IMG/VR virus record: IMGVR_UViG_3300044694_000082
Coordinates: 32,001 to 96,000 of that record
Source of the DNA: a virus
Lineage: Duplodnaviria; Caudoviricetes
Strand: one strand, 5' to 3'
Length of the DNA stretch: 64,000 nucleotides
The notes under the pieces are model-generated. The model searched no databases. It was not told the origin of the DNA and saw only the letters and a program-made list of their open reading frames with translations. A program made the translations under genes and the position numbers. Shown piece by piece: positions 1 through 40,214 of this stretch; position 1 is the first letter of the stretch, and each line of letters begins with the position of its first letter.

Positions 1-392
1 CGGCAGTCGAACTGCGGTTGCAGGTTGGGGTCCATGCGCAGCCGGTCCAGCACCACCGAGGCGTAGGCCGCGGAGATCGAGGTGATCTTGTCGATCCGGC
101 CGCCGAACCACAGCTCGGAGCTGAGGGTGTCGAAGTCGGTGAGGAGCAGAGAGATCTCGTCGGACTGGGTGTAGGCGAACCGTGCACCCTGGATCTCGCG
201 GCACAGGGCCTCGGCGACGACGTCCATCTGCCTGACGAAGCCTCGATCGAAGGGCTTCTCAGTGTCCTTGAGGTAGGTGTGGAAGGCCCGGCCGTCCAGA
301 CGCAGCAGCGTGTAGGAACGGCGGGGAACCTTGCGCTCGTAGGTCCGCTCATAGACCTTCATCCGGTTGCCGAGCGGGGTGTTGTCGCTCAT
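1..392 (-). CDS. thg1: Thg1-like tRNA(His) guanylyltransferase / 3'-5' polymerase (3' part runs off window)
   Basis: Own translation from ATG 392 (RBS AGGAGA): MSDNTPLGNRMKVYE..LLRLDGRAFHTY..KPFD..FAYTQSDEISLLL..WFGGRIDKITSISAA..FDCR, all hallmark Thg1 motifs; absent from ORF track because truncated. Confidence 0.93.
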   Translation of the reverse strand, partial: MSDNTPLGNRMKVYERTYERKVPRRSYTLLRLDGRAFHTYLKDTEKPFDRGFVRQMDVVAEALCREIQGARFAYTQSDEISLLLTDFDTLSSELWFGGRIDKITSISAAYASVVLDRLRMDPNLQPQFDC

Positions 393-633
393 GGTCTCCT
401 CTCTGTGTTTCACGTGGAACATCGCGGCCGATGTGTCGGCGGACAGCTTCGACGGCGGCCACCGCTTCTTCGTGCATCCACTTCTCGTAGGCCTCGCGCT
501 CCATCACGACGGCGGGCTTGCCGCAGGACTTGACGTTGCGCCCGGCGGCGTGCTTCCACGTGCCCTTGGCGCCCCAGAGGTGGACGGCGCAGCCGCACCG
601 CTGGCAGACGTAGTGACTCTGGCTGGTGGCCAT
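349..633 (-). CDS. hypothetical protein, CxxC zinc-binding
   Basis: 94 aa ORF with RBS GAAGGAG, in the leftward operon. Confidence 0.6.
   Translation of the reverse strand: MATSQSHYVCQRCGCAVHLWGAKGTWKHAAGRNVKSCGKPAVVMEREAYEKWMHEEAVAAVEAVRRHIGRDVPRETQRGDHERQHPARQPDEGL
406..421. promoter_or_regulatory. parS-consensus site 1 (TGTTTCACGTGGAACA)
   Basis: Reverse complement TGTTCCACGTGAAACA fits parS consensus TGTTNCACGTGAAACA; just upstream of thg1 RBS. Confidence 0.8.
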
Positions 634-643
634 GGTGTCTCCT

Positions 644-889
644 TCACTCGTTGTCGACGATGCGATGCCAGCGCTCGATCAGCCGGTCGTTGTGTGGACC
701 CGTGTCGGGATGCGTAGCCGACAGACGGCCCTCGATCTTGCCCATGGACAGGATCACGTCGAGCTTGCCACGGATCTCCGTCTCGCCGATGCGATCGATG
801 GTGTGCTCAGGAATCAGCACGAGGATCGCGTCGTACAGTTCGGCGGTCCTCAGGACTCGTTGCACCTGGTTGCTGTAGTCCCCGTTCAT
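644..889 (-). CDS. hypothetical protein
   Basis: MNGDYSNQ.. start with GAGGAAG RBS, coupled to neighbour. Confidence 0.6.
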   Translation of the reverse strand: MNGDYSNQVQRVLRTAELYDAILVLIPEHTIDRIGETEIRGKLDVILSMGKIEGRLSATHPDTGPHNDRLIERWHRIVDNE

Positions 890-1197
890 GGCTTCCTCTC
901 GTAGCCATCGCCACGGAGATCGGCCTTGGCGATCTTCTCGCTGGCGATGTCGATGGCGGGCATCAGGGTGTCGGCGCAGAGGTCGCCGTAGAAGTGCGGG
1001 TTGACGTCGCGTCCCAGGTACAGGCACCAGCCCGCGTCCAGGATCTTCACCAGCCGGTAGGTGAGGCCGAAGATCTCGGTCTCCCATACGCCGGAGCGGA
1101 CGGACATGGGCACGTACCCGCGCCGGAAGGTCCAGCCGAATCCGTTGTCGGCTTCGATGTACCGCTCTCCCATGTGCGTCTTGCGCTGGGCCATCAC
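886..1197 (-). CDS. hypothetical protein
   Basis: 103 aa, overlapping stop/start with neighbours. Confidence 0.6.
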   Translation of the reverse strand: MMAQRKTHMGERYIEADNGFGWTFRRGYVPMSVRSGVWETEIFGLTYRLVKILDAGWCLYLGRDVNPHFYGDLCADTLMPAIDIASEKIAKADLRGDGYERKP

Positions 1198-1457
1198 TTC
1201 TCCTTGGCCGTTGTTTCACGTGGAACATCGAGCGTGAGGGCGAGGGCGACGGCCTCCCTCTTGCTGGGCCGTGTCCTCCACGGTTCATTCGGGCTGTTGT
1301 AGGGGCGGGCGCCCCAGCGCCGGTAGTAGCTATTGTTGGGTAGATGCTTCACGGTAGCGGTGTACGTGGTGCTGCCGGTGGGCTTGATGTGGTAGGTGGC
1401 CTCTTCGGTTTCGTCGGGGTCGATCGTGTAGTCATCTCTCTTCGGCAACCGGTACAT
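1194..1457 (-). CDS. hypothetical protein
   Basis: MYRLPKR.. preceded by CCGACAAGGAAGG. Confidence 0.6.
   Translation of the reverse strand: MYRLPKRDDYTIDPDETEEATYHIKPTGSTTYTATVKHLPNNSYYRRWGARPYNSPNEPWRTRPSKREAVALALTLDVPRETTAKEK
1212..1227. promoter_or_regulatory. parS-consensus site 2
   Basis: TGTTTCACGTGGAACA, in last codons of the upstream gene, before the next RBS. Confidence 0.8.
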
Positions 1458-1476
1458 GGCAGCCTTCCTTGTCGGG

Positions 1477-1492
1477 TGTTTCACGTGGAACA
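1477..1492. promoter_or_regulatory. parS-consensus site 3
   Basis: TGTTTCACGTGGAACA, intergenic, abutting the GACAAGGAAG RBS. Confidence 0.8.
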
Positions 1493-1517
1493 TCGGGTGG
1501 ATCATCTCGGTCAAGGG

Positions 1518-1556
1518 GGATGCCCCTGCCGCACCGCCACAGGGGCAGGGGCATCC
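1518..1556 (-). terminator. 13-bp stem hairpin, possible terminator/processing site
   Basis: GGATGCCCCTGCC..GGCAGGGGCATCC. Confidence 0.5.
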
Positions 1557-1571
1557 GGCTTGAGGTGACGA

Positions 1572-1730
1572 TCAGGACGGCGGGTCCTCCTCGTCGCGGC
1601 CCATCAGCCACGAGTGGAACAGCAGCCCGAGCAGCATCATGACCGCGGCGAACATCCACGCGTGATCGAGGAGACCGAGGATGACGTCCTCGGCCGTGGG
1701 CTTGACGGTGAAGGTGAACTCGCCGGACAT
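1572..1730 (-). CDS. small membrane protein (52 aa)
   Basis: Own translation MSGEFTFTVKPTAEDVILGLLDHAWMFAAVMMLLGLLFHSWLM..; one hydrophobic helix. Confidence 0.55.
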   Translation of the reverse strand: MSGEFTFTVKPTAEDVILGLLDHAWMFAAVMMLLGLLFHSWLMGRDEEDPPS

Positions 1731-1731
1731 G

Positions 1732-2220
1732 TCACGTCTGGCCCGGCTTGTTGAAGACCCACACGTCGTCGCTGACGTTGACGTCGCCGACGACCCAGAT
1801 CTTGGAGCCGTCCATGACGGACTGCTCGACCTGCTTCTTGCCGTGCTCGTTCAGCCAGTGCCAGCCGACCGGTCCGCAGTTCTCGTCGAGGTACTCCTCC
1901 AGCGGTTCAAGGGAGCTGGGGTAGTAGATCTCGAACTTCGCGGCCATGTCCTTGACCTGGCGGGGCGTGAGGAACGTGCCGCCGTGGAACTGCTGGGCGG
2001 CCTTCAGCGTGGCCAGGACGCCATCCTCGGCGTCGGCCCTCGACCAGGTCTCGGCCTGCCGGTAGACGTGGCGCAGGGCGTTGGCTGCGGCCCTGGCCTC
2101 CTGGTTCTTCTTGTAGACCGCGTCGTCGATGTCCTCCTCCTCCCACGGCGAGCCGCTCAGGGCGCGAAAGAGGACCAGCCAGACGGCGGGGACGGAGAAG
2201 CGGATGTCGTCGGTGCTCAT
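1732..2220 (-). CDS. hypothetical protein
   Basis: 162 aa, GACAAGGAAG RBS. Confidence 0.7.
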   Translation of the reverse strand: MSTDDIRFSVPAVWLVLFRALSGSPWEEEDIDDAVYKKNQEARAAANALRHVYRQAETWSRADAEDGVLATLKAAQQFHGGTFLTPRQVKDMAAKFEIYYPSSLEPLEEYLDENCGPVGWHWLNEHGKKQVEQSVMDGSKIWVVGDVNVSDDVWVFNKPGQT

Positions 2221-2247
2221 GAAGCTACCTTCCTTGTCAGCGGGGAT

Positions 2248-2263
2248 TGTTTCACGTGGAACG
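2248..2263. promoter_or_regulatory. parS-consensus site 4 (TGTTTCACGTGGAACG)
   Basis: 1 bp after Nudix stop codon, before next RBS. Confidence 0.78.
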
Positions 2264-2264
2264 C

Positions 2265-2714
2265 TCAGACATCGGCGTTCGGGAAGTACGTCTGGCCGGT
2301 CTCATAGGCGATGATCAGGTTGTCGACGCCGCCGTAGCGAGGAGTGGGCAGTGCGTCGATCGGGAACCATTGCCAGCCGCCGCACTTGTCCGGCTCCATG
2401 AGTTCCGGCGTACCGTTCCTGTAGCGGCTGATCACGCCGATGTCGATGTAGTGCTTGGGCAGGTAGTTCCTGAGGTTGGTGAAACACAGGACGCGGGGGC
2501 GTGTGGTGCGGAAGTACGGGCCGCACTCCTCGGCCAGTTCGCGCAGCGCGCCCTCCTCGGGGCTCTCGCCGTTTTCCATGTGGCCGCCGGGTGTGCCCCA
2601 CTCGCCGGGGCCGAGGGATCCACGGCGCATACCGAGGAGAACTCTGATGTCGTCACCAGACTCGTCGATGATCAGGTGGCTGATGCCCACCATGGGACGG
2701 GGGTTGTCGGTCAT
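2265..2714 (-). CDS. Nudix hydrolase (MutT/NUDT15-like)
   Basis: Nudix box GGHMENGESPEEGALRELAEECG; EPDKC..WQWF tail. Confidence 0.92.
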   Translation of the reverse strand: MTDNPRPMVGISHLIIDESGDDIRVLLGMRRGSLGPGEWGTPGGHMENGESPEEGALRELAEECGPYFRTTRPRVLCFTNLRNYLPKHYIDIGVISRYRNGTPELMEPDKCGGWQWFPIDALPTPRYGGVDNLIIAYETGQTYFPNADV

Positions 2715-2723
2715 GATGTCCTT

Positions 2724-5700
2724 TCAGAAGGGCGGGCAGCACAGGTGGTTGCTGCAGAAGTGCTGCTTGACCAGGCTGACCGGCGGTGGCGGGGCAGGCG
2801 GGTAGTCCGAGGCGGGCTCGGGGTCGTCGTAGAGGTAGGAGGCGTCGCTGCCGTAGTCCGGGCAGACCGGCCCGCTGTACGGGGGGAGCGTGCCGTTGCG
2901 CTCGTGGAAGGCGTACTCCGCGGAGAAGCAGGCGGGGACGCCGAGTTCCTCGGCTTCGGTCATGGTGATCGGTTGCTGGGTCATGGTCAGTCCAGGTAGG
3001 GGTGTCGGAGGCTGGGGTGGACGGCGATGGCGTCGGCCAGAGTGACGACGTTGAGTTCCGTCTCGGCACCTTCGATCAGGGCGATCAACTCCGCCCTGGG
3101 CATGCCTCGCTCTTCGAGCTGCTCGATGGTGAACTTCACGATCCAGGCATGCACCTCGGGGGTGAACTCCTCCTTGTCGAGGGACGCGCCAAGCAGGAAG
3201 ATCAGGTGCAGGCGCTCGACGTCATCCAGCTTCGACCCTGCCGGATTGGGGCCGGAGAGGCGGCGCAGCCTGTCGAGGAGGTGGCCGGGGGCGGATGATG
3301 TGATCACGAAGCCTCCCATGCGGCGATCTCCTCGGGGGTGGCGGGGATCGGCTGGTCACCCTCGTACGGCTCCCACGCCAGTTGGAACATGTAGGGCATC
3401 GTCTCGCGGCGGTACGCGGCTAGCCCGAGGGCGTTGCCCGGGGCGAACTTCGGCAGCTGGCCGTAGTTGTCCTCCCGCTCCTCACGGTCGTGGACCTCGC
3501 ACAGCGGGCTGCCAGGCTTCTTGAACTCACCGCAGTAGATCGACCACGGCAGCCCATAGGCGGTCTGGTAGCCACAGATCTGGCCGCCGCGCCACGGTTC
3601 ACGGGGCAGTGTCTTCATGATGCTTCCTATCTAGTGTCGGTGGCCGGTGTTCCGTGGCCTTCGTGATGATGGTCCGTGAAGCACAGGCCGCAGTACGGAC
3701 GGTGGCAGACACGGCAGAACTGGTCGCTGGACTTCTCACAGCCGAAGCAGGCGTCGGACAACTCGGCCACGTAGCTGGCCTTGGTGCGCCAGCGCAGGCG
3801 GCACATGTCGAACGAACAGCGGACCTCGGAGTAGTGAGAGGGCGTCCGGCGGTAGCCGTTGAACGCTGACGCGTTGTAGTTGCGCATGGTCACCACCCAG
3901 AAGGGGCGGTGACTCTGGTTGCGACAGGCGATGCCACTCATGCGTCACCGGTCCGAGGGTGGGAAGCCGCCGGTCTTCAGGTACGTCTCCGCCCACGGGA
4001 TCAGCTGCTCCATCCGCTTGATCGTCACCTTCACGTGGGTCCGGTCGGTGATCTGTCCGGCGACGACCTGGGCCGCTGCACTCAACGCGGCCTGCCGGAC
4101 CCACTGGGGGTAGGCGTCGTGGTTGCGAGACGGGATGTCGCTCACGTCGTTGCTCCTCGTTGGCAGAGACAGGCCTTGTGGATCTCAGCCAGCGCCGCCT
4201 TCCGCTCGTCGTCGGCTTTGACCGGGTCGATGTTGAAGTACTGATTCAGCGCGTTGCCGGTGGACAGGTAACCCCTCTCGGGGTGCCAGAGGGCGTACCC
4301 CTGATCAGCCGCCCAGTCGAGGAACTCGCCGATGACCTGGCCGTCTTCGCTGTGCTCGGCGATCTTGTCGAGTTCGGGAGTCTCCACGTCACCCCTCCTT
4401 CGGGCGTGCGGCGTGAAGTTCGGAGTTCTGCTTCCGGTTGTGTTCGGCGGCCTCGCGGTTGTAGGCCACCTCGTCGAGGTCGGCGAACAGGTCAGCGTCG
4501 TCGAGGGTGTTGAAGGCCTGCGCTGCGTCGCCCAGCCCCGTGATGCTGGTGTTGTCGTGGAAGCGGAGGGCGAAGCTGCGCAGGGTGGCGAGAGCCTTGA
4601 CTTGCTCTTCGAGGGTGGGCTTGGACATGTCAGTTTCCTCCTGGGTTGAGGGGCTCGGCGTGTTCCAGATAGGCCAGCAGGGAGTCCAGCTCAGCCACGG
4701 TCGGCGTGAAGAACGTGGTCTTGTGGATCGTCCGGGCTCGCCGGAATGCGTCTGTGAGGGTGAACCGCCTGCGCTTGTAGTCCGCGGGGAGTGCCGGTTG
4801 GCCGTTGCGTACGGTCAGTGTGGCGGCGTCGGTGTTGCTCATGATGAAGGGGTAGCGGGTGCTGACCTTGAAGTCGTTGAAGAAGGGCGTGGCCTCCTGC
4901 CCCTCTTGGAGGCTGGCCAGCTTAGCCGCGTCCTCGGCCGACACGACGTGGAACCACACCAGGTGCGTCGTCCCCTTCTCACGGCGAGCCGAGACGACAC
5001 GCGAGGTGTCCAGCACGCTGCGGTAGGTGACAAAGCCCGAACCGGCCGGGAGGTCTGCTGCGTAGCGGCTCAGAACCTCCCATCTCTTGATCAACTCGGG
5101 GTCCTTCAGCCGCAGGAACTTGTAGATGTACGGCCAGGCGAGCCGGGCCATGTCACTTCTCCTTCTTCGGGTCGACATAGAGGGTCGCCGTCGAGCGCTC
5201 GACGGGGTATACCATACTGGTGAGGAGCTGCTCGTACTGGTCGAGCATCTCGTTGCGTTCCGCCTCCTGCTCGGCCTTGTCCAAGACCTCGTCACCGCAG
5301 CGGTAGCCGACCCTGACGAGGTGCAGATCCTTGTCCCAGCTGCATCGGTGACCCCCGAACGCGATGTCCTTGCGGGAGACCCACGGCTTGAACCCCGCAG
5401 TGGTCAGTGTCCGGCCGATGGTAGTGGCGGGGGTGAAGGTGCCGTGCGGCCTGGTCGGGCGGTCGCTGGGCATGTCACTTCTCCTGTTCAACGGTGATGA
5501 CGTAGCCACTGGGGACGGTGCGCCACTCGCCGACGGTGCGCCATCCGGCGTCCGCCAGTAGCTCTCCAGCCTGCTTGACAGCGTCATCGTGATCGCCGGT
5601 GCGTACGTCCACGGTGGTGGTGGCGTAGAAGTACTCCCACTCGTCAGCGTTGGTGGCGTTGGTGTCGAGGACGACGACGTCGCACACATCGGTGGCAACG

Positions 5701-6430
5701 GATCCACTGTCGGTGGTGAGCCATGCATTGAAGCTCACGTCAGCTCCCCTCACTGAAGGGCGGCTCGATGAACATGACGGTCTGGTCGTCGGTGTACCAG
5801 GTGTTGGTGAGCAGGGTGCCATCGGTGCTGGCCACCCTCAGCGTGCGGTCGATCCGGAAGTAGTCCCGGAACTGGGCTGCCGCCTTCTCGGGGGTGTCGG
5901 CGACGACGGGGACGGTGAATCCGACCAGGTACCTGGGCATGTCAGCCCCTCTTGTCGAAGGTGGCGAGGTAGGCCACCGGGCTGGTGTCCGCGTCCGGCA
6001 GCCACTGAACCAGCGTGGTTGCCCAGCGCAGGTAGCGGGCCCGCCAGTTGCCGACGATGGCCCACTCGTGGTCCGGCCAGTCCATCTCGATCCCGCGCAT
6101 GAGGCCCATGGCGAAGGTCCAGGGGTCCTCGTCGTGGTCGCCCTCGGTGATGGGGGTGTGCATCTGCTCGGGGTCTTCGAGTTCGTCGACCAACTTGATT
6201 GACATCAGCTGGACGCGGCCCTTGACGGTGCCGTCGATGTCGGCCAGGCGCGGCCGTGCGTGTCCTGTCTTGGTGAGCATGGGTGTCACTCCTCGTTGCT
6301 GTCGGCCATCTCGTCGAGCTGCATGATCAGCTCGGCAAGCTGGGCGTTGGTGATCTTGCGGGTGTACTGCACGTGGTCGCGGTCGTCGGTCCAGTAGTCG
6401 AGGGTGACGTCGATCAGGTCGTCCATGGTG
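2724..6430 (-). other. run of ~12 small translationally coupled hypothetical genes (2724-2984, 2987-3307, 3304-3618, 3627-3941, 3945-4145, 4142-4387, 4389-4628, 4630-5151, 5153-5473, 5475-5738, 5740-5940, 5942-6280)
   Basis: Contiguous minus-strand ORFs with overlapping or 1-nt spaced stop/start (frequent TGACATG junctions) and SD motifs. Confidence 0.7.
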
Positions 6431-6506
6431 GGGCGTCCTTTCAGGTCGGGATATGGGAGGACGCGCCCGCGCGGCGAGAAGCGCGGACGCGTCCGGTCTT
6501 ATGGTG

Positions 6507-6764
6507 TCAGGTCGTACTGACAGTGGGTGCTGCTTCGTCCTCGGGCAGCAGCTCCCTGACGTGCTTCCACGTCTCCCGCTGGATGACGGCTCGGCAGGTG
6601 CTGTACTCGATGCCGTACTCAAGGCCGAGATTGAGGATGCTGATCCTCTCGGTCTTGTACCGAAATCGAATCTCCCGCACCTTCTCCTCGGTCAGTTTCG
6701 CCCGGCCGTGTTTCTCGCCCTGGTTGTACGACCGGCGCTTGCGCTTCTCCACCAGTGAGTCCAT
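6507..6764 (-). CDS. stand-alone HTH DNA-binding protein (type found C-terminal to HNH endonucleases)
   Basis: NQGEKHGRAKLTEEKVREIR..LGLEYGIEYSTCRAVIQRETWKHV. Confidence 0.75.
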   Translation of the reverse strand: MDSLVEKRKRRSYNQGEKHGRAKLTEEKVREIRFRYKTERISILNLGLEYGIEYSTCRAVIQRETWKHVRELLPEDEAAPTVSTT

Positions 6765-6801
6765 GACTCTTCCTTGTCTGTCGTGCGTGGAAGCAGTCTG
6801 C

Positions 6802-7110
6802 TCACTCCATCGTCATGGCGTCCAGCCACTGGGCGGCTGGCATCCCGTCGAGGTACCAGTCGCCATCGCCGGTACCGGTGAAGTCCTCCAGTTCCAGGTC
6901 GAGTTCGTGCTTGGCAGCCTCGGCGATGAACTGCTCGCGGGTGGTGAGGTGGGCGTAGGGGCGCTTCGGACAGCCCTGCATCCGCGCGAAGGCCCCGTAG
7001 GTGTTGGTCGCTCCACAGTCGGTGCATCTCCAGAGGGTGAGGGCCATGCCCCGCTGCCCCTCCTTCATGCCGGTGTCCTCGCAGCGGTGGCCGCAAATGT
7101 TGGTAGTCAT
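6802..7110 (-). CDS. hypothetical protein, Cys-rich N-terminus
   Basis: MTTNICGHRC.., RBS GAAAGGA. Confidence 0.6.
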   Translation of the reverse strand: MTTNICGHRCEDTGMKEGQRGMALTLWRCTDCGATNTYGAFARMQGCPKRPYAHLTTREQFIAEAAKHELDLELEDFTGTGDGDWYLDGMPAAQWLDAMTME

Positions 7111-7176
7111 GGTGTCCTTTCCTCGTGACTCCGGAGGGGCCACCGTGCGAGACGGTGACCCGTGCTGGCGCCACGA

Positions 7177-7192
7177 TGTTTCACGTGGAACA
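7177..7192. promoter_or_regulatory. parS-consensus site 5
   Basis: GATGTTTCACGTGGAACATC, directly abutting stop codon at 7193. Confidence 0.8.
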
Positions 7193-7633
7193 TCAGCGGC
7201 AGGCGACGCGCTTCCACGTCAGCTGCGTGCCACCGGGTCGGCCGTCGGCGTCGACCAGGGAGATGACCCACTGGCCGCCCGCGGTGCCGCACTGCTGGCC
7301 GATGGCGTCCACGCTGACCGGCACCGCGGTGACGTTGAGCTGGTAGCTCTTCGCCTCGGCGACCAGGGCGTCATGCATCTGCCGCTGGGTGTATCCCGAG
7401 TGCGTGATCTGGTGGACGAGGGTCTTGCCGCTGGGCTCGGTCCAGGCCCCCTCGCGGTGGCCGTCGAAGGTGCGGCCGTAGGAGTGCTGGAGCTGGACCT
7501 TACGGCACAGGGTGCGGTCGGCGGAGGCGACGCGGTTGCAGTCGTTGTTGCTGCTGGCGCCGACGGCGACCGGAACAGCCACGCCGATGAGCAGAGCTGC
7601 GGCGGCGATGGCGGTCAGGGGACGGTTGATCAC
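7193..7633 (-). CDS. putative secreted protein
   Basis: Signal-peptide-like MINRPLTAIAAAALLIGVAVPVAVGA; 4 Cys; flanked by parS sites. Confidence 0.65.
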   Translation of the reverse strand: MINRPLTAIAAAALLIGVAVPVAVGASSNNDCNRVASADRTLCRKVQLQHSYGRTFDGHREGAWTEPSGKTLVHQITHSGYTQRQMHDALVAEAKSYQLNVTAVPVSVDAIGQQCGTAGGQWVISLVDADGRPGGTQLTWKRVACR

Positions 7634-7652
7634 AGGTAATTCTCCTTGTCGT

Positions 7653-7668
7653 TGTTTCACGTGGAACA
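7653..7668. promoter_or_regulatory. parS-consensus site 6
   Basis: TGTTTCACGTGGAACA between stop 7673 and GACAAGGAG RBS. Confidence 0.8.
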
Positions 7669-7672
7669 TGGG

Positions 7673-10600
7673 TTACAGCTCGGTCCACTTGCCGTTGATC
7701 CAGTACCAGATCTCGCTGGCACCGGCGTTCGGCTTGCCGAAGTCGTCGAGCGGGGCGAAGTCCTTGACGCCCTGCTCGTCCTCGGGGCGGGTGATGATGC
7801 GGCCGGTGTAGTACAGCTCGCCGTCATCGTCCCGCATCTGGAACGGGCGCCCCTCACCGGCCTTGAGCCGGGCCTCGATGGCGGGGCTGATGTTGTGCGG
7901 GCCCGTCACCCCCTTGGCGTTGGCGTTGCTGCCCTCGGGGGCGCTGGTGTCTGGTGCGTGGTCGGTGGTGATGATCCAGCCGTACGACGCGTGCTTCATC
8001 ATGGGTGCTCCTACTGGGGTGGGTACAGGCCGAGGACCTGGCCGTTGCCAGGCTCGGCGAAAGCGATCTCGCGGGGCACGACGCCGTCATGGCTGGCGTC
8101 GATGGCCCAGTTGAGTGGCCCGTCATGCCAGACCACGGCCCACGGCATGACCGGCTCGATCGAGTCGTAGGTCTTCTCCCAGTCCTCGACCAGGGTGGGC
8201 GTGCCGAACGAGTCGCCGAGCAGCTTGTAGTGCCGGGTGATGTAGCCGAAGGCGGCTGCCGCCTGGCCGGGGGTCAACTTGCTCATGTGGTGCGCCTCCG
8301 TGCGAGAAGTTCGGTGTAGTGAGGACAGTCGTCGTTGTGGTAGTCCTGCCAGTACGGACACTCACACCGTGGCAGGGGCTCATCAGTTACTGCATCGGAG
8401 CCGAGACGGATGATGCCGTCCGCATCGGCCTTGGGGTAGCGATCGTTGAGATCGATGCCACGCAGGCCAGCCATCAGGCGGGCGTACGCCTCCTCGTCGA
8501 CACAGGAGCCGTCACAGAAGTCCGGCTCATCCTCGGTGCCTGGGCCGTGACCCGGGCACTCGGGCTTGTCATCGGGCGACTGGTGCTTGTCATTGTTCGG
8601 GTTGGCGCCGCAGAACGTCTCGCCGGTGATCAGGTCGCGGCCGTCCTCGTCCAGTGGATCCGAGCAGTGCACGCACAGCGGGGTGTCGTAGTCCTGGCTC
8701 ACCAGGGCCTCTCCCTCTGCTCGCCGCAGGGGCAGGTCTGGATCACGGGCGGCCTGGGCAACTCTCCTCCTGACGGTGGGCTTTCGAAAACATGGACGTG
8801 CCCGGCGCCCGTCTGGTGCGCCGGGCACCGGTGCTCCTGGGTCGCCGTGTCGTACGCCCAGCCCGCTTGCCGCGCCGACGTGAACGCGGCCACGTGTGTG
8901 CGGTACGTGGTGATCACACCGAGGCACTTGAGCGGGCGGCCGGGATCGAGCCAGCCGCCGCCCACGCAGCGGACCATGTACTGGGCGTGGATGCTCACCG
9001 CATGCTCTCCTCGATCGCTTCGGCTTCGGCGTCCTCGGCGGCGAGGCACCGCTCGCACTGGTTCTCGCCCTCGTCGCAGTTCTCCTGGTCGGCGCCGTTG
9101 ACACAGCGTTCAACCTGGCTCTCGGGGATGAACTTGGCGTCGTCCATGGAGTACCAGGTCTCGGGACCGCCGGGCCGGAGCCAGTGGACCCGCAGCCGTG
9201 TACGCCCGTTCTTCTCCTCGACGGCGATGACGTAGCCCTGCTGGCCGCCCTTGCCCTGGATGTAGACGCGCGGCGCCGTCGGCCGTTCGTAGCGCTCGAA
9301 CCAATCGGCGAACTTGGCCGCAGGCCAGGTCTCGTAACGATAGTCCTTCGGCATGTCCTCACCACGGTCGAACTCAATCAGCAGCTCATCCTTGTTGCCG
9401 CGCGTGCGTCGCAGGACCGTGACGAACTCACCCGCACCGCCCGTGTTCGGCTTGCGCATGCGCCAGGTCGATCCGACGGCGAACTGACCGGCGGGGATGG
9501 GCTTGGGCGGGCACTCGGGGCCGTCGGGGTGGACCTCGACGCGGTTGTCAGCGAAGGCGTACGAGTCGTAGTCGGCGTAGCTCCCGTGCGGGTACTCGCG
9601 CCGCCACATGTACTTCGAACGACCAGCGGTGTACCCGCTGATCATGCCAGGCTCAGGGTTTCGGTAGACCATCTTGCGACGGTCGTCGTCCCATTCGACA
9701 TCGGAGACCAGCACCCGCGTACCCACGGGCAGCAGCTTGTGCTTCGGCTCCGGGGGCGGGTCGGCGTAGTCGCAGTCCTCGGTGTGGCGCTCCTTGCACT
9801 GGGGGCGACGGTTCTCCTTGGACCTGCACTCCTTGAGGGGCGGCAACGGGATGACCTCACGCCACGCCTCGACCTCGTAGGGTGGGTAGTCGCTGTGGTT
9901 CTCTGCCAGCATCACGAGGGCTGCGATGTGGGCCCGCTGTGCCTCGACCTGCGCGGAGAGGAGGGCAGCGATCCGCTCCAGCATGTCGTCAATCGCGAAC
10001 GCGTCGTTGATCTCTGCGTTGATCGCCTTGAAGTACTCGGGGCCGGTCTTGTTGTCGGTCATGATCAGTCCTTCCGTCCGTCGAGGAGCTTGCCGAACAT
10101 CTTGGAGGCGGCGGTCAGGTCGGGCTGAGGCTCGGCCTTGACGATGGCGACGACGGCGGCGCCGTTGTCCCGCTGCTGGCGGGTGAGGCAGGCCTCGGCG
10201 CCTTTGTAGGTACCGGACCACTTCACACCGACGGCGATCCGGCCGTCCGACCAGCGCACGACGGCGGCGTAGTTGTAGGTGTTGGCGGAGGTGCGTTCGG
10301 CGTGGTGGAGCTGGCCGTCCTCGTCGCGGTAGACGGCCACGTACTTGGTCTTCTTGGTGGGCATGTCAGGGCTCCTCGGTGTGGGCGGTGTTGGCGGGGA
10401 GGCACTGCGGGGTGGTGCGGTGCCAGGTGTAGCAGCCGTCGCACAGGCAGTCGTCCTCACCGGCGAACATGGCGTCTTCCGGCGTGACCAGACGGCCACA
10501 GCACGGGCACGAGTTCGGCGGGGTGTCGGCGGGGTCGATGCGGAAAGACCAGCCGGACGGCTCATGCAGCTTCGCAACGGCGGTCCCCAGTTGTGCGAGG

Positions 10601-10919
10601 TCATTACCGAACCGGCGGGCGGCCATGACCGGGACGTCCATGCGGATCAGGATGTCTCCGGCTGCGTCGCCCGCGTGCTGGATCTCGGTGACCTCTTCGC
10701 GCAGGACCACGGCCTTGCCGTAGGCGGCCGGGGCGATGGGCGGGTGGATGACGGACAGGACGTAGCTCATCGCAGCTCCTCGATGTCGTCGGGGTGTTGG
10801 TACTGCTGGATCTCCATGGCCTTCCTGTAGTTGCGAGCCGCGGCCAGCGAGAAGCCAGCCGACGCGATGGACATGACCAGGGACAGGAGAGAGATGATCA
10901 GGGCGACGGTGTCGTTCAT
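7673..10919 (-). other. run of hypothetical genes (7673-8002, 8011-8286, 8283-8702, 8699-8998, 8995-10062, 10065-10364, 10366-10770, 10767-10919)
   Basis: Coupled minus-strand ORFs; 8995-10062 is a ~355 aa multi-domain protein with beta-rich segments and Cys clusters. Confidence 0.65.
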
Positions 10920-11287
10920 CGGGTGGCCTCCAGCTCGGCGAGGCGGGCGGTGATGAGCCGCTTCCAGGCGTCGGTGAGGGGGGCGAATACCTCCGTACGC
11001 TCGGCGTCGTTCAGTCGGTGCGCGAAGACGCCGATCTCCTTGGTTCCGAGGGTGAATCCGTGGGCCATCCTGTCGTCGTCCACGTCCAGGCCGAGTTGGT
11101 CCATGGCGCCCATGTAGGCGCCGTCACCGTCCGAGTGGCAGACGATCTGAGCGGCGACGCAGAACTGGGTGTCGGAAACGTCGAGGGCGCGGAGGTCGAC
11201 GTCCAGCTCCCAGCCGGGGTAGCGGGCGTCGAGGATGCGGGCGCCCTTCAGGACGCGGGCGTCGAGTTCGGTGTCGGTGGGGAACAT
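10916..11287 (-). CDS. hypothetical protein, paralogue of 12219-12563
   Basis: RVLKGARILD..DVDLRALD..CVAAQ..HGF..LTDAW; GACAAGGAAG RBS. Confidence 0.7.
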   Translation of the reverse strand: MFPTDTELDARVLKGARILDARYPGWELDVDLRALDVSDTQFCVAAQIVCHSDGDGAYMGAMDQLGLDVDDDRMAHGFTLGTKEIGVFAHRLNDAERTEVFAPLTDAWKRLITARLAELEATR

Positions 11288-11364
11288 GGTGTCTTCCTTG
11301 TCGTAGTTGGTCCCGTAAGCCGAAGGGGCCGGACACAGTGTGCCCAGCCTGTTCGGTCGGCGGG

Positions 11365-12204
11365 TCAGTCTTTGGTGGGCCAGAGGCAGGCCACGATCAC
11401 CACGATGGCGGTGATCACGGCGATGGCTGCGACGCCCAGGAGTACGGCACCGATCCCGAGACCGATGCCGCATCCTTCTGGGTCGTACTTCCGCATGTCC
11501 GAGGGGCACCAGAAGTTCCAGTACCAGTCGGGGATGCTCACGTGATCTCCGCGATCGTGACCCGATAGCGGCGGGTGTCGTTGCTGCCGTACGGGTCAGC
11601 CGTGACCACATCGATGGCCAGCGGCTCACCCGGGACCGGCGGGACCAGGTCGAAGTGCTTGACCAGCCGGGTCTCCAGGTCACCGTTGAGCAGACCGGTC
11701 ATGGCCGTGTAGATCGCGTAGCGCAGCTCGGCGTCGTTCATCCGGGGTACTCCCCGAGCCTCGTGTCCCAGGCGTCGCCGGGCAGACGGGCCAGCCACTT
11801 GGCGATGACCATCTGGGCGAACTCGTGCGGGATGCCTTCGGCATCGGTGCCCTCGGTCTTCTCCGTCCAGAACTCCAGCAGGGTTCCGGCCTCTTGAAGG
11901 AGGCGTTCGGCGACCTGTCGGCGCATCTGGGCGGCACTGACGCGTGCCGAGGGGGTGGGCGTGTCCATGGTGTCCTTTCGGTCGGCGGGGCTTACGCGCC
12001 CGTGAACTTCAGGTCGATGCTGGCGTCGACCTCACCGTTGCCGAAGACCCCGCCCCGGGCGTTCCCGGCGATGTAGGTCTTGGCGTCGTTCTTGATGTTC
12101 TCGCGGCCTTCGACGCCGAAGGCGGTCGTCCACTGGGACGGGTTGTGCAGGGTGACGGTCAGCTGGACGGTGAAGCTCATCGGGCGGTTGGGATCGCGGG
12201 CCAT
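11365..12204 (-). other. small hypothetical genes (11365-11541 membrane, 11538-11741, 11738-11968, 11992-12204)
   Basis: Coupled ORFs with SD motifs. Confidence 0.6.
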
Positions 12205-12218
12205 CGGGGTGGCTCCTT

Positions 12219-12563
12219 TCAGTCGGCGGCGAGTGCGGCCTTGGCGGTGCGGTGGGTGACCAGCTCGATGACCCACGCCTCGTAGAGGTTGGCGTAGTTG
12301 CCGTCGTGGTCGTCGTTTTCCTCGGCGAGGGTGACCGCGAAACCGTACTCGGCGGAGACGTCGTCGTTCGGGGGAATACCGAGCCGTTGCTGGCCCCGGC
12401 TGTACGAGCCACCACCGATGGCCTGTGCCGACGCGCAACGGGTGGTGCTGTACAGGTCGAGGGTGTCGAGGTCGATCCGGTCGGTGGCGCCCTGCTCGTA
12501 CTCCTCGATCTTGGTGATGCCCTTGCGGACGCGGGGGCGGAACTCTTCGATGGTCGTCGGCAT
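12219..12563 (-). CDS. hypothetical protein, paralogue of 10916-11287
   Basis: RVRKGITKIE..RIDLDTLD..CASAQ..YGF..LYEAW. Confidence 0.7.
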   Translation of the reverse strand: MPTTIEEFRPRVRKGITKIEEYEQGATDRIDLDTLDLYSTTRCASAQAIGGGSYSRGQQRLGIPPNDDVSAEYGFAVTLAEENDDHDGNYANLYEAWVIELVTHRTAKAALAAD

Positions 12564-12594
12564 GGTGAACCTTCCTTGTCGGGTGGTGCAGGTG

Positions 12595-12960
12595 TCAGGC
12601 GGTCTTGGCGGGGCAGGTGTCGGGGCATTCGGTGTGATCGCCGCTGTCATGCAGCCTGATCGCCTTCTCGAACCAGGCCAGCTGGCGCTGTTGTTCGAGC
12701 ATGCGCGGACCGGGACGCCCGATCAGGACCACGGCGCAGTCACGGTCGAATCGCGGTTCATACAGGCGCCCGTCGGCGGCAGGAGTGGCCCGAGTCTTGG
12801 AGACCACATCAACCCCGATCACCGGGTAGCCGGTGGGGCCGTTGACGCCGTCGGTGCGGATCTCGACATAACCGATCCTGCGCGGCAGCTTGATCTTGAT
12901 GACCGCCTCGTCGTCGTGCATGAGCACCGTGCGGTGCTCGCTGGGGTTGAGTTCGGTCAT
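12595..12960 (-). CDS. hypothetical protein, paralogue of 14559-14810
   Basis: IKLPRRIGYVEIRT..VDVVS..PAADG. Confidence 0.7.
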   Translation of the reverse strand: MTELNPSEHRTVLMHDDEAVIKIKLPRRIGYVEIRTDGVNGPTGYPVIGVDVVSKTRATPAADGRLYEPRFDRDCAVVLIGRPGPRMLEQQRQLAWFEKAIRLHDSGDHTECPDTCPAKTA

Positions 12961-14207
12961 GGGGTGCTCTCCTTGTCGAGGTGGTCGGCAAGCGCACGCA
13001 GGGCGTACTGAATGCCGGGACGGGTGCCCAGGCGGATGATCTCGGAGGGTGAGCCGTCCTTGTTCCGGACGGCGAAGCCGTTGGCGGGCAGACCCATCGC
13101 GCCACCGATCATCATGCCGCTGTCGCGAAGCTCGATCAGGTGGTCTTCAACGGCCAGGTGTACGGCCTGCATGAGGTCGGGGTCGTCGGCGATCTGACGC
13201 AGGAGGGCGGCGGCGTTGTCGGGCAGCTTGGGCGTGGTCATCAGATGCCCTCCCTGATCGTGTGGTCGGTGAGGGTGGCGTCGAGGCGGGCGATGAACTG
13301 ACCCGGCACCGGAAAGACGGTGGCGACCAGATCACCGATCACGGTTCCTTCGGGCTTGCTGTAGAAGCGGGTGATGCCGTCATCGCTGAGGACCATGTAG
13401 TCGGCGGCGATGTAGGCGACCGGGTCGTCCGCGTAGCGCTCGATGCGGAAGACGTGGGCGGGCTCGTGGTTGTCGCTCACAGCTTGGGCTCCTTCGTGGC
13501 GAGGCGTTCGCCGTTGAACTTCTTGTACGGCTGGTCGTCGCCGTCGCAGTGGATGTAGTACCAGCCGTCGAAGTACTGGCCGCCGGGTGCCATGATCCCT
13601 TCGTCCATGAACTGTGTCGGTTCAACGACGCCCCACCTGCGGTCGTAGTCCAGCACCCGCAGGCTGGGGGTGATGAGGGCGCGGTCGGAGGTATGGTGGG
13701 CCTCCAGGATGCGGAAGTCGTAGCCGGAGGGGTGGCCCCAGACCGTGCCGACGGGGCGGCGGCCGAGGGCGTCACCGAACAGGCGGGCGTTCCTCGACCC
13801 AGCCACACCGGACCCGATCAGGGAGCCTTTGGCGGCCAGGGCGGCGTGTTCGACGCTGGAGTAGGCGGTGTCTCCGTAGGCGGTGATCTTGCCCAGCGGG
13901 CTGCGACGGATAAGCAGGAGCCCTGGCATGATCACGCCTCCTCGGTGCGGACGGGGACGAACCAGGCCGGGGAGGGCTGCCCGGCGTTCGGGAACCCCGG
14001 GTCGTAGACGGCGGCGTCCTCGACGCGGATCACGCCGTTGGATTCCAGCGCGACGACGGAACCGCGAGCTACGGCCTTCTCGATTTCGTAGGCGACCCCG
14101 GCGGCGTTGTCTTGGCAGATGCGCCGGGACCAGCCGAGGCCGTAGCCGCCCGCCCACTTGGTGTACCAGACGCCGGGGACGGGGGTGGGGATGGATGCGG
14201 TGGTCAT
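12957..14207 (-). other. hypothetical genes (12957-13241, 13241-13480, 13477-13929, 13932-14207)
   Basis: Coupled ORFs. Confidence 0.65.
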
Positions 14208-14288
14208 GGTGTCGACCTTCCTTGTCGGTGTAGCGTGGTGGCGTCTACGTATCAAAGCCCGGCACGGCGGCAACCGTGCCGGGTTTCG

Positions 14289-14304
14289 TGTTTCACGTGG
14301 AACA
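14289..14304. promoter_or_regulatory. parS-consensus site 7
   Basis: TGTTTCACGTGGAACA 6 bp after stop 14311, next to hairpin AAAGCCCGGCACGG..CCGTGCCGGGTTT (14254-14286). Confidence 0.8.
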
Positions 14305-14310
14305 TCGGGC

Positions 14311-15515
14311 CTACTCGGGGGCCGACTCCCGCTGCTGCTCCAGCTGGTAGGCAGCCTCGCGCTCGATGGCCTCGCGGTCCGGCTCCGGCTCGCTGCGGCA
14401 GTCGTGCTCGTTCATGAGCGTGATCAGCGTGCCGATGTTGTCGTCGGGCTCGATGCGGGTGATGACCGTGCCGCAGTGCTCGTGTACCAGGTCGTGATCG
14501 GTCTGCATGTCGTCGTCGCTACGGCGGACGACGAAGCCGTACGGGTCGTTGATCTCCATCAGCTCTCCTCCCTGGTGCCAGTCAGGAAGACGACGCCCGG
14601 ATGGTGTGGCTGGCCGTCCTCGACGGTGTACGAGTAGCCGTCGGCGGCCGGGTCCTGGTAGGTGATGTCAGACATCACGTCGACACGTACGCGTGGGGCT
14701 CCGTCCTCGCGACGGGATTCGGTGTCGATCTCCACGACGCCGATGCCGTCGGGGAGGATGACGCGGAGGCTGCCGCGTCTCATGCGGTACTGGCGATAGT
14801 CGTTGGTCATCAGGCGACCTCGGCCTTGGCGTACTCGTCGTACGCGTCCATGAGCAGGTGGCGGAGCTGGGCGTGCGCGTCGCGGGCGGCGTTGTAGGCG
14901 GCCTCGGTCTCGTCGTAGTCCAGCTTGCCGCTGACCTCGAACCTTTCGGTGATCCACTCCCGCAGGGTGGGCATCTCCTCATACCGGGCGGCGTTCATGA
15001 GGAGTTCGCCGAGGACGCCGGACAACTCAGGGTTCACGTGACGGCCCCCGTTGCTCCGGCGGGACTCGGCCACGGCTCCACCGATGCCCCGGAAGTAGGC
15101 GGTGCGGCGGGTGCTGCCGTCCGTCACCCACTTCTGCGGCTCCTCGGTGGAGCGGATCAAGACCAGGTCCCACACCTCGTACTCGCTGTACGGGCCGGTC
15201 GAGACTTCGTGCGTCCAGAACCAGCGGGCGCGGATGCCGTCGCGGTTGATCAGGTCGGTAAGGGTGGTCATGGTGGTGTCCTTTCGGTGTCGGGCGGCGG
15301 AGTCAGCGGTCCAGCTTCTTGGAGCGCACGCGGTGCCGTGCATCCGGGGATGCGATGGTGTACTCCCTGCACAACCAGTACGCGTAGTCGCGGCCGGTCA
15401 GGGAGTCGTCCGGGCCACCCGTGTCGGTGGGTTCGACCTCGTCCAGCTCCTCCCACTCCGAGCCGGGGCCGGTGGTGTACTTGCCTTCGATGACCCAACC
15501 GTTGACGGTGCTCAT
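14311..15515 (-). other. hypothetical genes (14311-14559, 14559-14810, 14810-15271, 15303-15515)
   Basis: Coupled ORFs with SD motifs. Confidence 0.65.
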
Positions 15516-15531
15516 GATGGTGTCCTCTCGA

Positions 15532-15547
15532 TGTTTCACGTGGAACA
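15532..15547. promoter_or_regulatory. parS-consensus site 8
   Basis: TGTTTCACGTGGAACA 1 bp after stop 15549. Confidence 0.8.
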
Positions 15548-15548
15548 T

Positions 15549-15896
15549 TCAGCGGGCGGGCGGTGTGTAATCGGGGTCGCGGCGGATCTTGTTGTTGACG
15601 ATCCGGGAGACCGTCCCCTTGTCCAGTCCGAACTCCTCCGCGATGGCGGCCAGCGAGACACGGCCGGTCGCGTACTGCGCGCGGATGACCCGGGCCTCCT
15701 TCAGCAGTTGAGCACGCGTGGGTGCGGGCGGGAGATAGTCCGGGTCCGGCCAGGTCTGGCCACGGATGATCGCCGAGATGGTGGCGTGGTGGACGCCGTA
15801 CGTCTCGGCGAGCTGCGGCATGGTCGTGCGGCCTGCCGCGTACAGGGCGCGGATGGTGCGCACCTGCACCCAGGTCAGTACAGGGGCGCCGGGCAT
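15549..15896 (-). CDS. tandem double-HTH DNA-binding protein
   Basis: Two repeats: IRALYAAGRTTMPQLAETYGVHHATISAII / IRAQYATGRVSLAAIAEEFGLDKGTVSRIV, each followed by DPDY. Confidence 0.8.
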   Translation of the reverse strand: MPGAPVLTWVQVRTIRALYAAGRTTMPQLAETYGVHHATISAIIRGQTWPDPDYLPPAPTRAQLLKEARVIRAQYATGRVSLAAIAEEFGLDKGTVSRIVNNKIRRDPDYTPPAR

Positions 15897-15913
15897 GGGG
15901 TCTCCTTGTCGGA

Positions 15914-15929
15914 TGTTTCACGTGGAACG
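15914..15929. promoter_or_regulatory. parS-consensus site 9 (TGTTTCACGTGGAACG)
   Basis: Between stop 15931 and GACAAGGAG RBS. Confidence 0.78.
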
Positions 15930-15930
15930 G

Positions 15931-22175: not shown

Positions 22176-23103
22176 CGTTCAGGTGGTACGTCACCGTGGG
22201 GCCGAATGGCTGTCCCACGGGGAAGGACTTCAGCCCGATGTTGCGCAGCTTGGGATGGAACGTGGCTGTATACATCAGACGGGTCGTCGATTTGTCGTCG
22301 ATGATCCAGAGTGCCTTGCTGCCGTAGGGGAACACGTCCAGTCCCCGGAGCACTTCCATCTCGACCCCGACGAACCCGTCATCGGACGGCGGCCAGAGAA
22401 TCTCCTCCAGCATGACCACGTCTTGTCTGCGTGCTGGGGTGTGGTTGTCCAGTTCCACATAGGCGCGGTAGTTCGCGGTCACCGTGGCGCCCGTCGGGTA
22501 GACGTAACCGACCGGCCGCATCTCGCGTACCTCACTCATGATCATGTCCTCTCGCTGAGTCCTGTGCAGACAACAGGGCGCACGTTCCCGTCAGGGATCA
22601 TGCGCCCGATGCGTGCACGGCTCAGACGTTCTTACGCGCGGCCTCCTGTGCGGCCAGCTCATCCGGGGTGATCACCCGGACGCTCGGCCACGCGTTGATC
22701 GTCGGCGACGTGGACGTGTCCATGTGCCAGTCCATGAACGTGACCTTGCTGCCCTTGGGCACCTCCGCCTCGACGGCGCGGATAACGGCCCGCCTCACTG
22801 CGGCCCGATCGTCGCTGTTGACGTTCCACCAGGCGCGTGCCTTGTGAATCCAGCCCGGTCCCGCAGAACGGTCGGCCGGTCCGGCGTACTCAACGATCAT
22901 GACTGCGTCTCCTCACTGCCCGCGCACCCTGCGCGCTGGCATGTCACCGTGATCTTGCGCCCCGACTGGTAGTGCTCGATCGAGAACGGGCCCTTGATCC
23001 CGCACCCGGTCCGCGCGTTGCTGATATTCGAGTAGGCCCAGCCGTCACGGATCTTGTGCGTGGCGCCCTTGCCGGTCACCCGGGCAACGTACTGCGCTTC
23101 CAT
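22162..23103 (-). other. three hypothetical genes (22162-22545, 22622-22900, 22897-23103)
   Basis: SD motifs GAGAGGA/GAGGAG/GAGAGGG. Confidence 0.55.
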
Positions 23104-23314
23104 GATCAGTCCCTCTCCTGGGGTGCATTCTTTCGAGCCTGACACGTCATGTCACCCTGTGTGACGACATGGGGTGTCGCGACGGGGTCGCGATCAACCT
23201 AAAGGGTGTTTGTTTCACGGATGAACAAACGATCAACCCTCAACCTCAGGTTGAGACTTTGAGGCCGGGCCGGGGCGCAGTGCACGCCCCGGTCCGCCGT
23301 GCGTGTGTAGGGGT

Positions 23315-25126: not shown

Positions 25127-25149
25127 GATCGTTTCTCCCTCATTTTCCA

Positions 25150-39893: not shown

Positions 39894-40214
39894 TCACCGC
39901 TTCCGGCGGTAGCAGGGGAGCGTCCACACGATCGAGCGGCGCGTCTTGTCCTTCTGCCGCCAACCCGCGTACATGCTGTCCCGCATCCTCTCCACCGTCG
40001 AGGAAGCGCCGGTCGGCAGGAGCGCGTAGTGCCGGTCCGGTGTCCACCCCATCCTGATGAGGCAGTCCCCGATCTCCGCCCCGGGGAACGGCTCCAGGTC
40101 AGGGTCACGGTCCCGGTACAACAGCTCGCAGATGTCGGTGCCCTTCACCCGCAGGATCCAGTCGTAGTTGTTGTTCACGCGGACGTAGGCGGTCCGCCAC
40201 TCCAGCTCGCTCAC
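39894..40214 (-). CDS. hypothetical protein coupled to the recombinase
   Basis: GTGA overlap, GGAGGGG RBS. Confidence 0.55.
   Translation of the reverse strand: MSELEWRTAYVRVNNNYDWILRVKGTDICELLYRDRDPDLEPFPGAEIGDCLIRMGWTPDRHYALLPTGASSTVERMRDSMYAGWRQKDKTRRSIVWTLPCYRRKR

Follow-up and report, generated by a model that had tools for sequence, protein, structure and literature searches.

Why would a bacteriophage carry a long series of sequences that look like the centromere sites of a bacterial chromosome, most of them placed just before its own genes? The question is raised by a 64,000-nt stretch of DNA (hereafter the window) that comprises positions 32001-96000 of the 104,344-bp IMG/VR virus record IMGVR_UViG_3300044694_000082 (alias G000; linear, CheckV 100%). 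An earlier note, made from the letters of the window alone, had described nine co-oriented sites of the parS type, on which the partition protein ParB loads, and had suggested that the phage uses them to hijack the ParB of its host. Here, these sites are described over the whole record, in related phages and in host chromosomes, and the proteins that may bind them are weighed against one another.

The record is a tailed phage genome, as the earlier note had held: it encodes a portal protein, next to which lies an open reading frame (ORF) with matches to annotated capsid maturation proteases, and it has genes for a family-A DNA polymerase, a D5-type primase and ThyX. Its long leftward arm consists of small ORFs without known relatives. 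Gene calls were heuristic, and the gene strand in the region of interest was taken to be the minus strand from ORF calls based on the G+C content of third codon positions.

Results

A single array of parS-type sites

The nine sites, of sequence TGTTTCACGTGGAAC(A/G), were found in a single orientation at the positions that the earlier note had given (Table 1), against a chance expectation of 0.06 matches per window (100 shuffles; highest shuffle, one match). No tenth site was present in the 64-kb window even when up to two mismatches were allowed, in agreement with the claim that none lies past 16 kb. Because the genes here lie on the minus strand, the sense-strand reading of the sites is the reverse complement, TGTTCCACGTGAAACA, which fits the chromosomal parS consensus TGTTNCACGTGAAACA exactly, as had also been claimed. 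The count over the whole replicon that the earlier note had proposed gave 32 sites between record positions 22,194 and 47,929, all on the minus strand, which is the gene strand, and all within a 26-kb stretch of small genes. Twenty-five of them match all 16 positions of the consensus tGTTNCACGTGAAACa and the other seven deviate solely at position 1 or 16, leaving the 14-bp core intact in 32/32 sites and limiting variation to the two outer positions. The nine sites of the window form the upstream (right-hand) third of the full array, whose density is about one site per 450 bp at record 22-34 kb and sparse at 34-48 kb.

Conservation of the core with free outer positions matches how actinobacterial parS is defined, the consensus sequences and the role of Streptomyces ParAB in sporulation having been reviewed previously (PMC7022226). 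The 16-mer is letter for letter the coding strand of the parS site within B. subtilis parB, which has been used in ParB binding studies and is a standard substrate in ParB/Spo0J biochemistry (PMC4333373). None of the papers found to contain the 16-mer deals with phages.

An orphan ParA of host type

A gene for a Soj/ParA ATPase (AAA_31, E = 1.8e-60) lies inside the array at record 22,849-23,646 on the minus strand (L010:4849-5646), with one parS-type site 27 nt before its ATG and a second abutting its stop codon. The gene is 8.3-9.2 kb before the window start and hence outside the window, so that the earlier statement that neither parA nor parB is present holds within the window but not, for parA, on the replicon. 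The ParA alignment shows an invariant deviant Walker A motif, KGGVGKT. The phage ParA shares 64-67% identity with its chromosomal counterparts in Streptomyces and Kitasatospora and no more than 61% with those of other Actinomycetota. In a ParA tree, built as a quick maximum-likelihood version only, 17 phage-type ParAs formed one clade (Shimodaira-Hasegawa-like approximate likelihood ratio test [SH-aLRT] support, 99), which joined the Streptomycetaceae (98), and this phylogeny points to a member of the Streptomycetaceae as the host. With 265 amino acids (aa) versus ~310-375 aa, the phage protein is without the long N-terminal extension of the host ParA.

The cognate ParB that would complete a parABS cassette was not found on the replicon. 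Six-frame searches with the ParB_N hidden Markov model (HMM) gave nothing in this record or in the related phage G002, and in the related phage G001 only a sub-threshold match (E 0.018, 12 bits) far from the array; the HTH_ParB HMM, run in six frames on this record alone, gave no match. In tblastn with Kitasatospora ParB against six phage sequences, including the related contigs L123-L125, the best E value was 0.44 and nothing was significant. The phage-encoded ParB elsewhere on the replicon that, according to the earlier note, would explain the sites as an ordinary parABS system was thus sought by HMM and tblastn and not found. No gene is conserved beside parA across seven lineages, and a small conserved centromere-binding gene adjoining parA, sought in the same lineages, was not present in any. 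An orphan ParA derived from a host strengthens the idea that ParB is borrowed.

The genes neighbouring parA differ in every related phage. An AcrVA2-like protein (PF26125) is encoded just downstream of parA at L123:11314-12450 and L124:11069-12265, and the homologous position in this record holds just two parS sites and short ORFs.

The array in related phages

The relatives comprise two IMG/VR records, G001 (116.7 kb) and G002 (111,555 bp, with direct terminal repeats), and the metagenome contigs L123, L124, L125 (nearly the same phage as G002), L323 and L324. Comparison with related phages, also proposed by the earlier note, showed the invariant 14-bp core in at least six further phage lineages, some known from short contigs alone. 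Each of the longer sequences (G001, G002/L125, L123 and L124) has 20-26 sites; in the short contigs L323 and L324 there are four and five, respectively, each set including one core variant. One perfect palindrome each occurs in G001 and L323. A parA orthologue is present in all array-bearing relatives, shared proteins of which are merely 40-70% identical, and the gene content between sites is highly mosaic. The gene order of G002 is a circular permutation of that of this record, with the junction in the region matching record 56-60 kb; together with the terminal repeats, this suggests that the genome is circularly permuted or circularises.

No phage similar to the clade was found among the isolates of the INPHARED collection. 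Megablast of window positions 1-16000 against its 50,697 phage records gave no match, and searches of isolated phages with the primase and the portal-adjacent ORF protein gave just distant matches below 60% identity. In IMG/VR, a ParA profile scan yielded G001 and G002 as the only close relatives, and a primase profile G001 only.

The 16-mer is found in at least 119 viral contigs and, apart from this clade, has 1-4 copies in each among the matches listed. With a 31-nt parS probe, isolated phages gave at most 4-5 partial matches per record, and phi29-like Bacillus phages were matched at four places each. Few or single host-type parS sequences occur in isolated phages of other Actinomycetota, namely in Arthrobacter phage Emotion, in Microbacterium phage RobsFeet (match 23/23, within a 'DNA binding protein' gene) and in Gordonia phages of the Woes group; these observations refer to the collection matches H63, H73, H87 and H79 and to the locus L326:4006-4019. 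Host-type parS on phages may thus be more widespread than recognised.

Anatomy and placement of the element

An alignment of 138 exact-core sites from six sequences (this record and related phages), with the two perfect palindromes left outside the count, gave the conserved element c(G/A)A-TGTTCCACGTGAAACA-TCg. This is a 22-bp near-palindrome with a symmetric central CACGTG, broken by one mismatch (hereafter the C variant), and A at -1 and T at +16 are present in 125/138 and 116/138 sites, respectively. The alignment holds no sequence information upstream of position -3, which excludes a two-block promoter. A promoter reading was therefore rejected; no sigma-70-like sites were found in window 1-16500, and the Shine-Dalgarno (SD) sequence often abuts the site. 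A T7-type RNA polymerase was not found in a search made without a positive control.

The sites are co-oriented with the genes in 135 of the 138 cases (p = 2.5e-36). The sole three reversed sites are L123:5375-5390, 6403-6418 and 7312-7327, one of which pairs divergently with a forward site 14 bp off; near the origin, host chromosomes likewise have C variants in inverted pairs, spaced by 17-49 bp. In the typical layout, the stop codon of the upstream gene is followed by the site and then by the SD and start codon of the next gene, the start codon lying 11-33 nt past the site. Seven of the nine window sites lie 13-27 nt upstream of the SD and start codon of a minus-strand gene, and those at 7177 and 14289 depart from this layout, standing after a stop codon and before a terminator-like hairpin. 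In about one third of cases, the upstream ORF terminates within the site, at an internal TGA, or reads through it. A conserved ORF of 190 aa (record 25,261-25,833, minus strand; L010:7261-7833) spans four sites, each read as DVPRETS. This frame is used by every ORF that reads through a site, and the alternative open frame (FHVKH) is never used. That sites are kept inside ORFs despite the amino-acid cost suggests selection on the DNA word and its density rather than on a signal for each ribosome-binding site (RBS).

In the sense transcript, the 22-nt element folds into a hairpin of -5.8 kcal/mol. The reverse orientation, with a G.U wobble, would give -9.8 kcal/mol and a perfect site -10.3 kcal/mol; the C variant in the sense transcript has a C.A mismatch and forms the weakest hairpin of the three.

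parS on host chromosomes

Five Streptomycetaceae genomes contain 11-22 parS sites each near parAB, about 90% of which are the perfect sequence GTTTCACGTGAAAC and 1-3 of which, in each genome, are the C variant. At 25 loci around host parA, 109/112 sites are perfect palindromes. Since the C variant is present in host chromosomes, the phage word is a natural but minor host parS. Flank conservation in hosts is weak: counted from the centre, position 8 is T in 67% of half-sites and position 9 is A in 39%. The 18-mer ATGTTCCACGTGAAACAT, which includes the A/T flanks of the phage sites, occurs in 74/401 Streptomycetaceae genomes, at 0-5 copies per genome and in both orientations. Among the 401 genomes it never forms an array, nor was the array found there as a prophage or plasmid. 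The suggestion that the phage is a plasmid prophage, with which a 'Cre-like' gene was earlier said to fit, has no direct support; that gene encodes a short tyrosine recombinase of 237 aa.

Other genes of the replicon

The features of the window and its left edge are listed in Table 1. DNA-binding candidates are the HU-like protein, the PadR-like and MarR-like winged-helix proteins, the tandem-helix-turn-helix (tandem-HTH) protein, the tandem GntR protein and the XRE-type protein, which may be a repressor. The genes preceded by parS-type sites include those for a Thg1-like 3'-5' nucleotidyltransferase (record 31,625-32,392, reaching window 1-392), an RlaP-type RNA-repair nucleotidyltransferase (record 26,176-26,904) and a NUDIX hydrolase (window 2265-2714), which may form an RNA/tRNA repair or anti-defence set. 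Among the replication genes, a family-2 glycosyltransferase gene (chitin/hyaluronan-synthase-like) adjoins one for a UDP-glucose/GDP-mannose dehydrogenase (record 9,190-12,035, minus strand; L009). A WhiB-like gene, looked for as a link to sporulation, was not found.

Table 1. Sites and genes in and beside the window (window coordinates unless marked as record)
Feature	Position	Strand	Context
Window edge; array runs on leftward	1..392	-	23 further sites at record 22,194-31,624
parS-type site TGTTCCACGTGAAACA	406..421	-	13 nt 5' of ATG of Thg1-like gene (record 31625-32392)
parS-type site	1212..1227	-	14 nt 5' of start of ORF 886-1197
parS-type site	1477..1492	-	19 nt 5' of start of ORF 1194-1457
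parS-type site, CGTTCC variant, 14-bp core intact	2248..2263	-	27 nt 5' of ORF 1732-2220; directly after stop of NUDIX gene 2265-2714
parS-type site	7177..7192	-	Abuts TGA stop of ORF 7193-7633; hairpin next; start codon 66 nt downstream
parS-type site	7653..7668	-	19 nt 5' of start of ORF 7193-7633
parS-type site	14289..14304	-	Directly after stop of ORF 14311-14559, then strong G+C-rich terminator-like hairpin
parS-type site	15532..15547	-	16 nt 5' of start of ORF 15303-15515
parS-type site, CGTTCC variant, most upstream of array	15914..15929	-	17 nt 5' of tandem-HTH gene
HU-like, PadR-like and MarR-like genes	record 29.1-31.6 kb		Left of window
115-aa protein, two HTH motifs	15549..15896	-	First gene of site-bearing region; candidate phage DNA binder
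141-aa protein, two GntR-type winged-helix domains in tandem	36780-37205	-	
237-aa tyrosine recombinase, catalytic domain only	40211..40924	-	69% identical in G001, G002
155-aa XRE-type HTH gene	45905-46372	-	Opposite to surrounding structural genes

Discussion

On sequence evidence, the sites appear to be genuine chromosomal-type parS sequences on a ~104-kb Streptomycetaceae phage genome. A match to 15 parS positions that is repeated 32 times and unchanged across diverged phages cannot be due to chance. We think it probable that host ParB binds these sites at all. The fuller proposal adds that the phage ParA positions or segregates the phage DNA once host ParB has loaded there, and on this we are evenly divided. 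The phage would then be an enlarged actinobacterial counterpart of Bacillus phage phi29. A role of host ParB is the most economical reading because the captured ParA is kept in every lineage and no ParB is detectable. Furthermore, an unchanging site across phages with 40-70% identical proteins agrees with a binder from the host that evolves slowly. Binding of ParB in the real host, its partnership with ParA and the biological purpose are what we infer from these patterns, and the purpose could be hyphal positioning, spore capture as in phi29, damping of downstream genes or ParB titration.

The course of events that we envisage starts with host ParB, absent from the phage, which would nucleate on the 32 sites and, as a clamp dependent on cytidine triphosphate (CTP), would spread across the 26-kb block of small early/middle genes. 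The ParB-coated phage DNA would then be cargo for the host-derived ParA of the phage, and possibly for the host ParA too, and would be positioned or segregated along the multigenomic hyphae; by analogy with phi29, this may include capture into prespore compartments. The sites lie mostly 10-30 nt before a start codon, and where ParB is plentiful, for instance in sporulating hyphae, its occupancy would probably also damp the expression of the genes that follow. In P. aeruginosa, ParB directly represses genes beside intergenic parS (PMC7022226).

Several observations weigh against this proposal. About 90-97% of host sites are perfect palindromes, whereas 135/138 of those in the phages are C variants, with one mismatch, and share a single orientation, and a symmetric ParB dimer would not require a uniform variant or a uniform orientation. 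The conserved element, at 22 bp, is longer than host parS, the flanks of which are conserved at 39-67%. The phage flanks form ATGT-N10-ACAT, the canonical PadR operator, an inverted repeat with a spacer of 8-10 nt (PMC3506622), and a gene for a PadR-like protein occurs in all lineages represented by enough sequence (G000, G001, G002, L123, L124 and L125). No lysogen or plasmid form was found in the 401 genomes of the host family. We tentatively ascribe the uniform C variant and the single orientation to selection against an mRNA hairpin and/or to copying and pasting along with gene cassettes. If selection acted against mRNA structure near the RBS through a position where ParB tolerates change, precisely this orientation would be expected, although the conserved flanks strengthen the hairpin, contrary to this idea. 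Copying and pasting of the 22-bp unit with gene cassettes would give uniformity without selection.

The flanks, orientation and placement of the sites could instead reflect a phage-encoded regulator that binds the 22-bp palindrome before ~30 genes and makes them one temporal class, in the manner of a stoperator-like regulon; this seems unlikely to us, though it is a serious rival. The best candidate for such a regulator would be the conserved PadR-like winged-helix protein, or alternatively an asymmetric or tandem-HTH protein, and the likeness to parS would serve to exclude or compete with ParB, or else the same protein would also target host parS. Co-oriented sites in mostly short gaps before the RBS are the pattern of repressor-bound stoperators in cluster A mycobacteriophages, the strict asymmetry suits an asymmetric binder, and the phage encodes several further HTH proteins besides the PadR-like one. 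However, PadR operators are defined by their arms, and here the opposite holds: the spacer is invariant and the arms are less conserved, the 14-bp core being present in 32/32 sites of this record and the full ATGT...ACAT in just 20/32. ATGT-N10-ACAT with another spacer was not found in G000, G001 or the metagenome loci, and the single instance in G002 is far from the array. Although the site is invariant, the PadR-like proteins share only 43-51% identity and have different recognition helices. The tandem-HTH protein is poorly conserved (40% identity, in G002 only, with no further relatives in a search of 5.8 billion proteins) and was rejected as a universal binder. A chance match to the 15 specified parS positions would arise at ~1e-9, the conserved orphan ParA would be left unexplained by a phage regulator, and abundant host ParB would still bind unless actively excluded. 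A dual ParB/PadR site is possible. Evidence for ParB binding would serve equally a ParB sponge, in which the 32 sites on each copy of the replicating phage DNA draw ParB away from the origin region of the host and, together with the truncated phage ParA, derail host segregation, SMC loading or sporulation septation to the benefit of the phage. The 20-32 sites per phage genome equal or exceed the 11-22 of the host chromosome, and the missing N-terminal extension of the phage ParA would suit such interference. We nevertheless regard a sponge as quite improbable: it would need neither the fixed orientation, nor the placement beside the RBS, nor ParA, nor a single 26-kb block, and perfect palindromes would be at least as good.

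Another kind of explanation takes the element as a mark of cassette boundaries, where related phages would exchange small genes by short-homology recombination or by the small tyrosine recombinase, as in integron attC arrays, with copy-paste descent giving the uniform orientation and sequence. The extreme mosaicism of the region, the arrangement of all sites as direct repeats, the 8+6+8-bp layout, which is compatible with a minimal tyrosine-recombinase core site, and the conservation of the recombinase in G001 and G002 would agree with this. In addition, 54/144 ends of high-scoring segment pairs (HSPs) in DNA comparisons lie within 25 nt of a site, versus 11.7 +/- 3.3 at random. This enrichment does not discriminate, because homology would end at gene boundaries whatever the model, and because HSPs are anchored by the conserved site. 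Some 24 kb separate the recombinase gene from the array, the CACGTG at the centre of the element is symmetric, and parS identity and the orphan ParA would remain unexplained; recombination at the sites, very unlikely as their function, would do better as their route of spread. We give least credence, and very little, to an RNA-level element, in which the transcribed palindrome would form a hairpin 5' of each RBS for processing, stabilisation or translational control. The element is indeed transcribed in the sense orientation directly upstream of the SD and can fold, but the variant and orientation observed give the weakest of the three hairpins, which suggests selection against RNA structure rather than for it. 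Some sites, moreover, lie within ORFs or before terminators without an RBS, and parS identity would again be unexplained.

Among known systems, Bacillus phage phi29 has five parS sites, and it uses host Spo0J for spore entrapment (Meijer et al. 2005, summarised in PMC2731898). It resembles the present phage in having no ParB of its own, host-chromosome-type parS sites and a spore-forming host, the last being presumed here, and host ParB/Spo0J carries its genome into the spore, as is proposed for the present phage. The five phi29 sites lie on a 19-kb genome, compared with 20-32 sites on 104-117 kb in this clade. Moreover, phi29 has no ParA of its own and silences its lytic genes through separate Spo0A boxes; the present phage keeps a host-derived ParA, and its parS sites stand before genes. 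The hosts also differ in phylum and in cell biology, that of the present phage being hyphal and multigenomic. The chromosomal ParABS of Streptomyces and other Actinomycetota shares with the phage the 14-bp core, bar one tolerated position. In Streptomyces, it also shares the ParA lineage of the Streptomycetaceae and many clustered sites (11-22 per genome). In contrast to that system, the phage is without parB and its ParA without the N-terminal extension, its sites are spaced one per ~450 bp instead of being spread over ~200 kb, its variant and orientation are uniform, and its palindromic flanks are conserved.

Partition proteins that also regulate or silence genes are known from plasmids and prophages, namely KorB/IncC of the IncP-1 plasmid RK2, with 12 OB operators, and the silencing by P1 ParB and F SopB. 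In such elements, a centromere-binding protein of the ParB type also acts, with its ParA partner, as a global regulator through many palindromic sites at or near the element's own promoters and genes. RK2, P1 and F each encode their ParB homologue themselves, whereas the present phage would need the host protein, and its site sequence is different. The stoperators of cluster A mycobacteriophages are asymmetric sites of 13-14 bp bound by the phage's own immunity repressor (gp71 in phage L5). They occur in two to three dozen copies, in short intergenic gaps and in one orientation relative to transcription across a gene block. The present sites are like them in number, placement and orientation; however, they are 16-22-bp palindromes with one mismatch that have the sequence of host parS, and an immunity repressor was not identified. 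Extrachromosomal prophages such as P1, N15 and those of cluster A mycobacteriophages share with this phage a phage-borne partition function with a ParA ATPase, but encode a cognate ParB and have a few private parS sites beside the operon (PMC7157519), whereas here no ParB was found and the sites are of the host chromosomal type.

A further reading, which is speculative and in our judgement unlikely, would make the one host protein ParB both sensor and handle in a lysogeny-free cycle of dormancy and dispersal in Streptomyces. In vegetative hyphae, where ParB would be scarce, the ~30 phage genes fronted by parS would be expressed. The developmentally induced host parAB promoter would then raise ParB in sporogenic hyphae, ParB clamps would coat the 26-kb block and turn the lytic programme off, and the phage ParA would partition the silenced genome into prespores. 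In this cycle, parS would do the work that in phi29 is split between parS sites and Spo0A boxes.

The precedent of phi29 means that the principle of a phage borrowing host ParB is already known, which lowers the novelty of the present case; the site density, the retained ParA and the layout with sites before genes are new. If host ParB does load on these sites, the arrangement would be more elaborate than that of phi29, in that a captured ParA has been kept, ParB has been discarded and a centromere has been placed before nearly every gene of a block. To our knowledge, this would be the first actinobacterial phage to borrow the chromosome-segregation machinery, none having been found in targeted literature searches. 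The finding also has a bearing on annotation: wherever a phage encodes an orphan ParA, host-type parS should be looked for. The compact, high-density parS array and the minimal ParA are possible tools. Loading of host ParB would moreover offer a natural test of transcription silencing by chromosomal ParB-CTP clamps and would link the development of these phages to the sporulation programme of Streptomyces.

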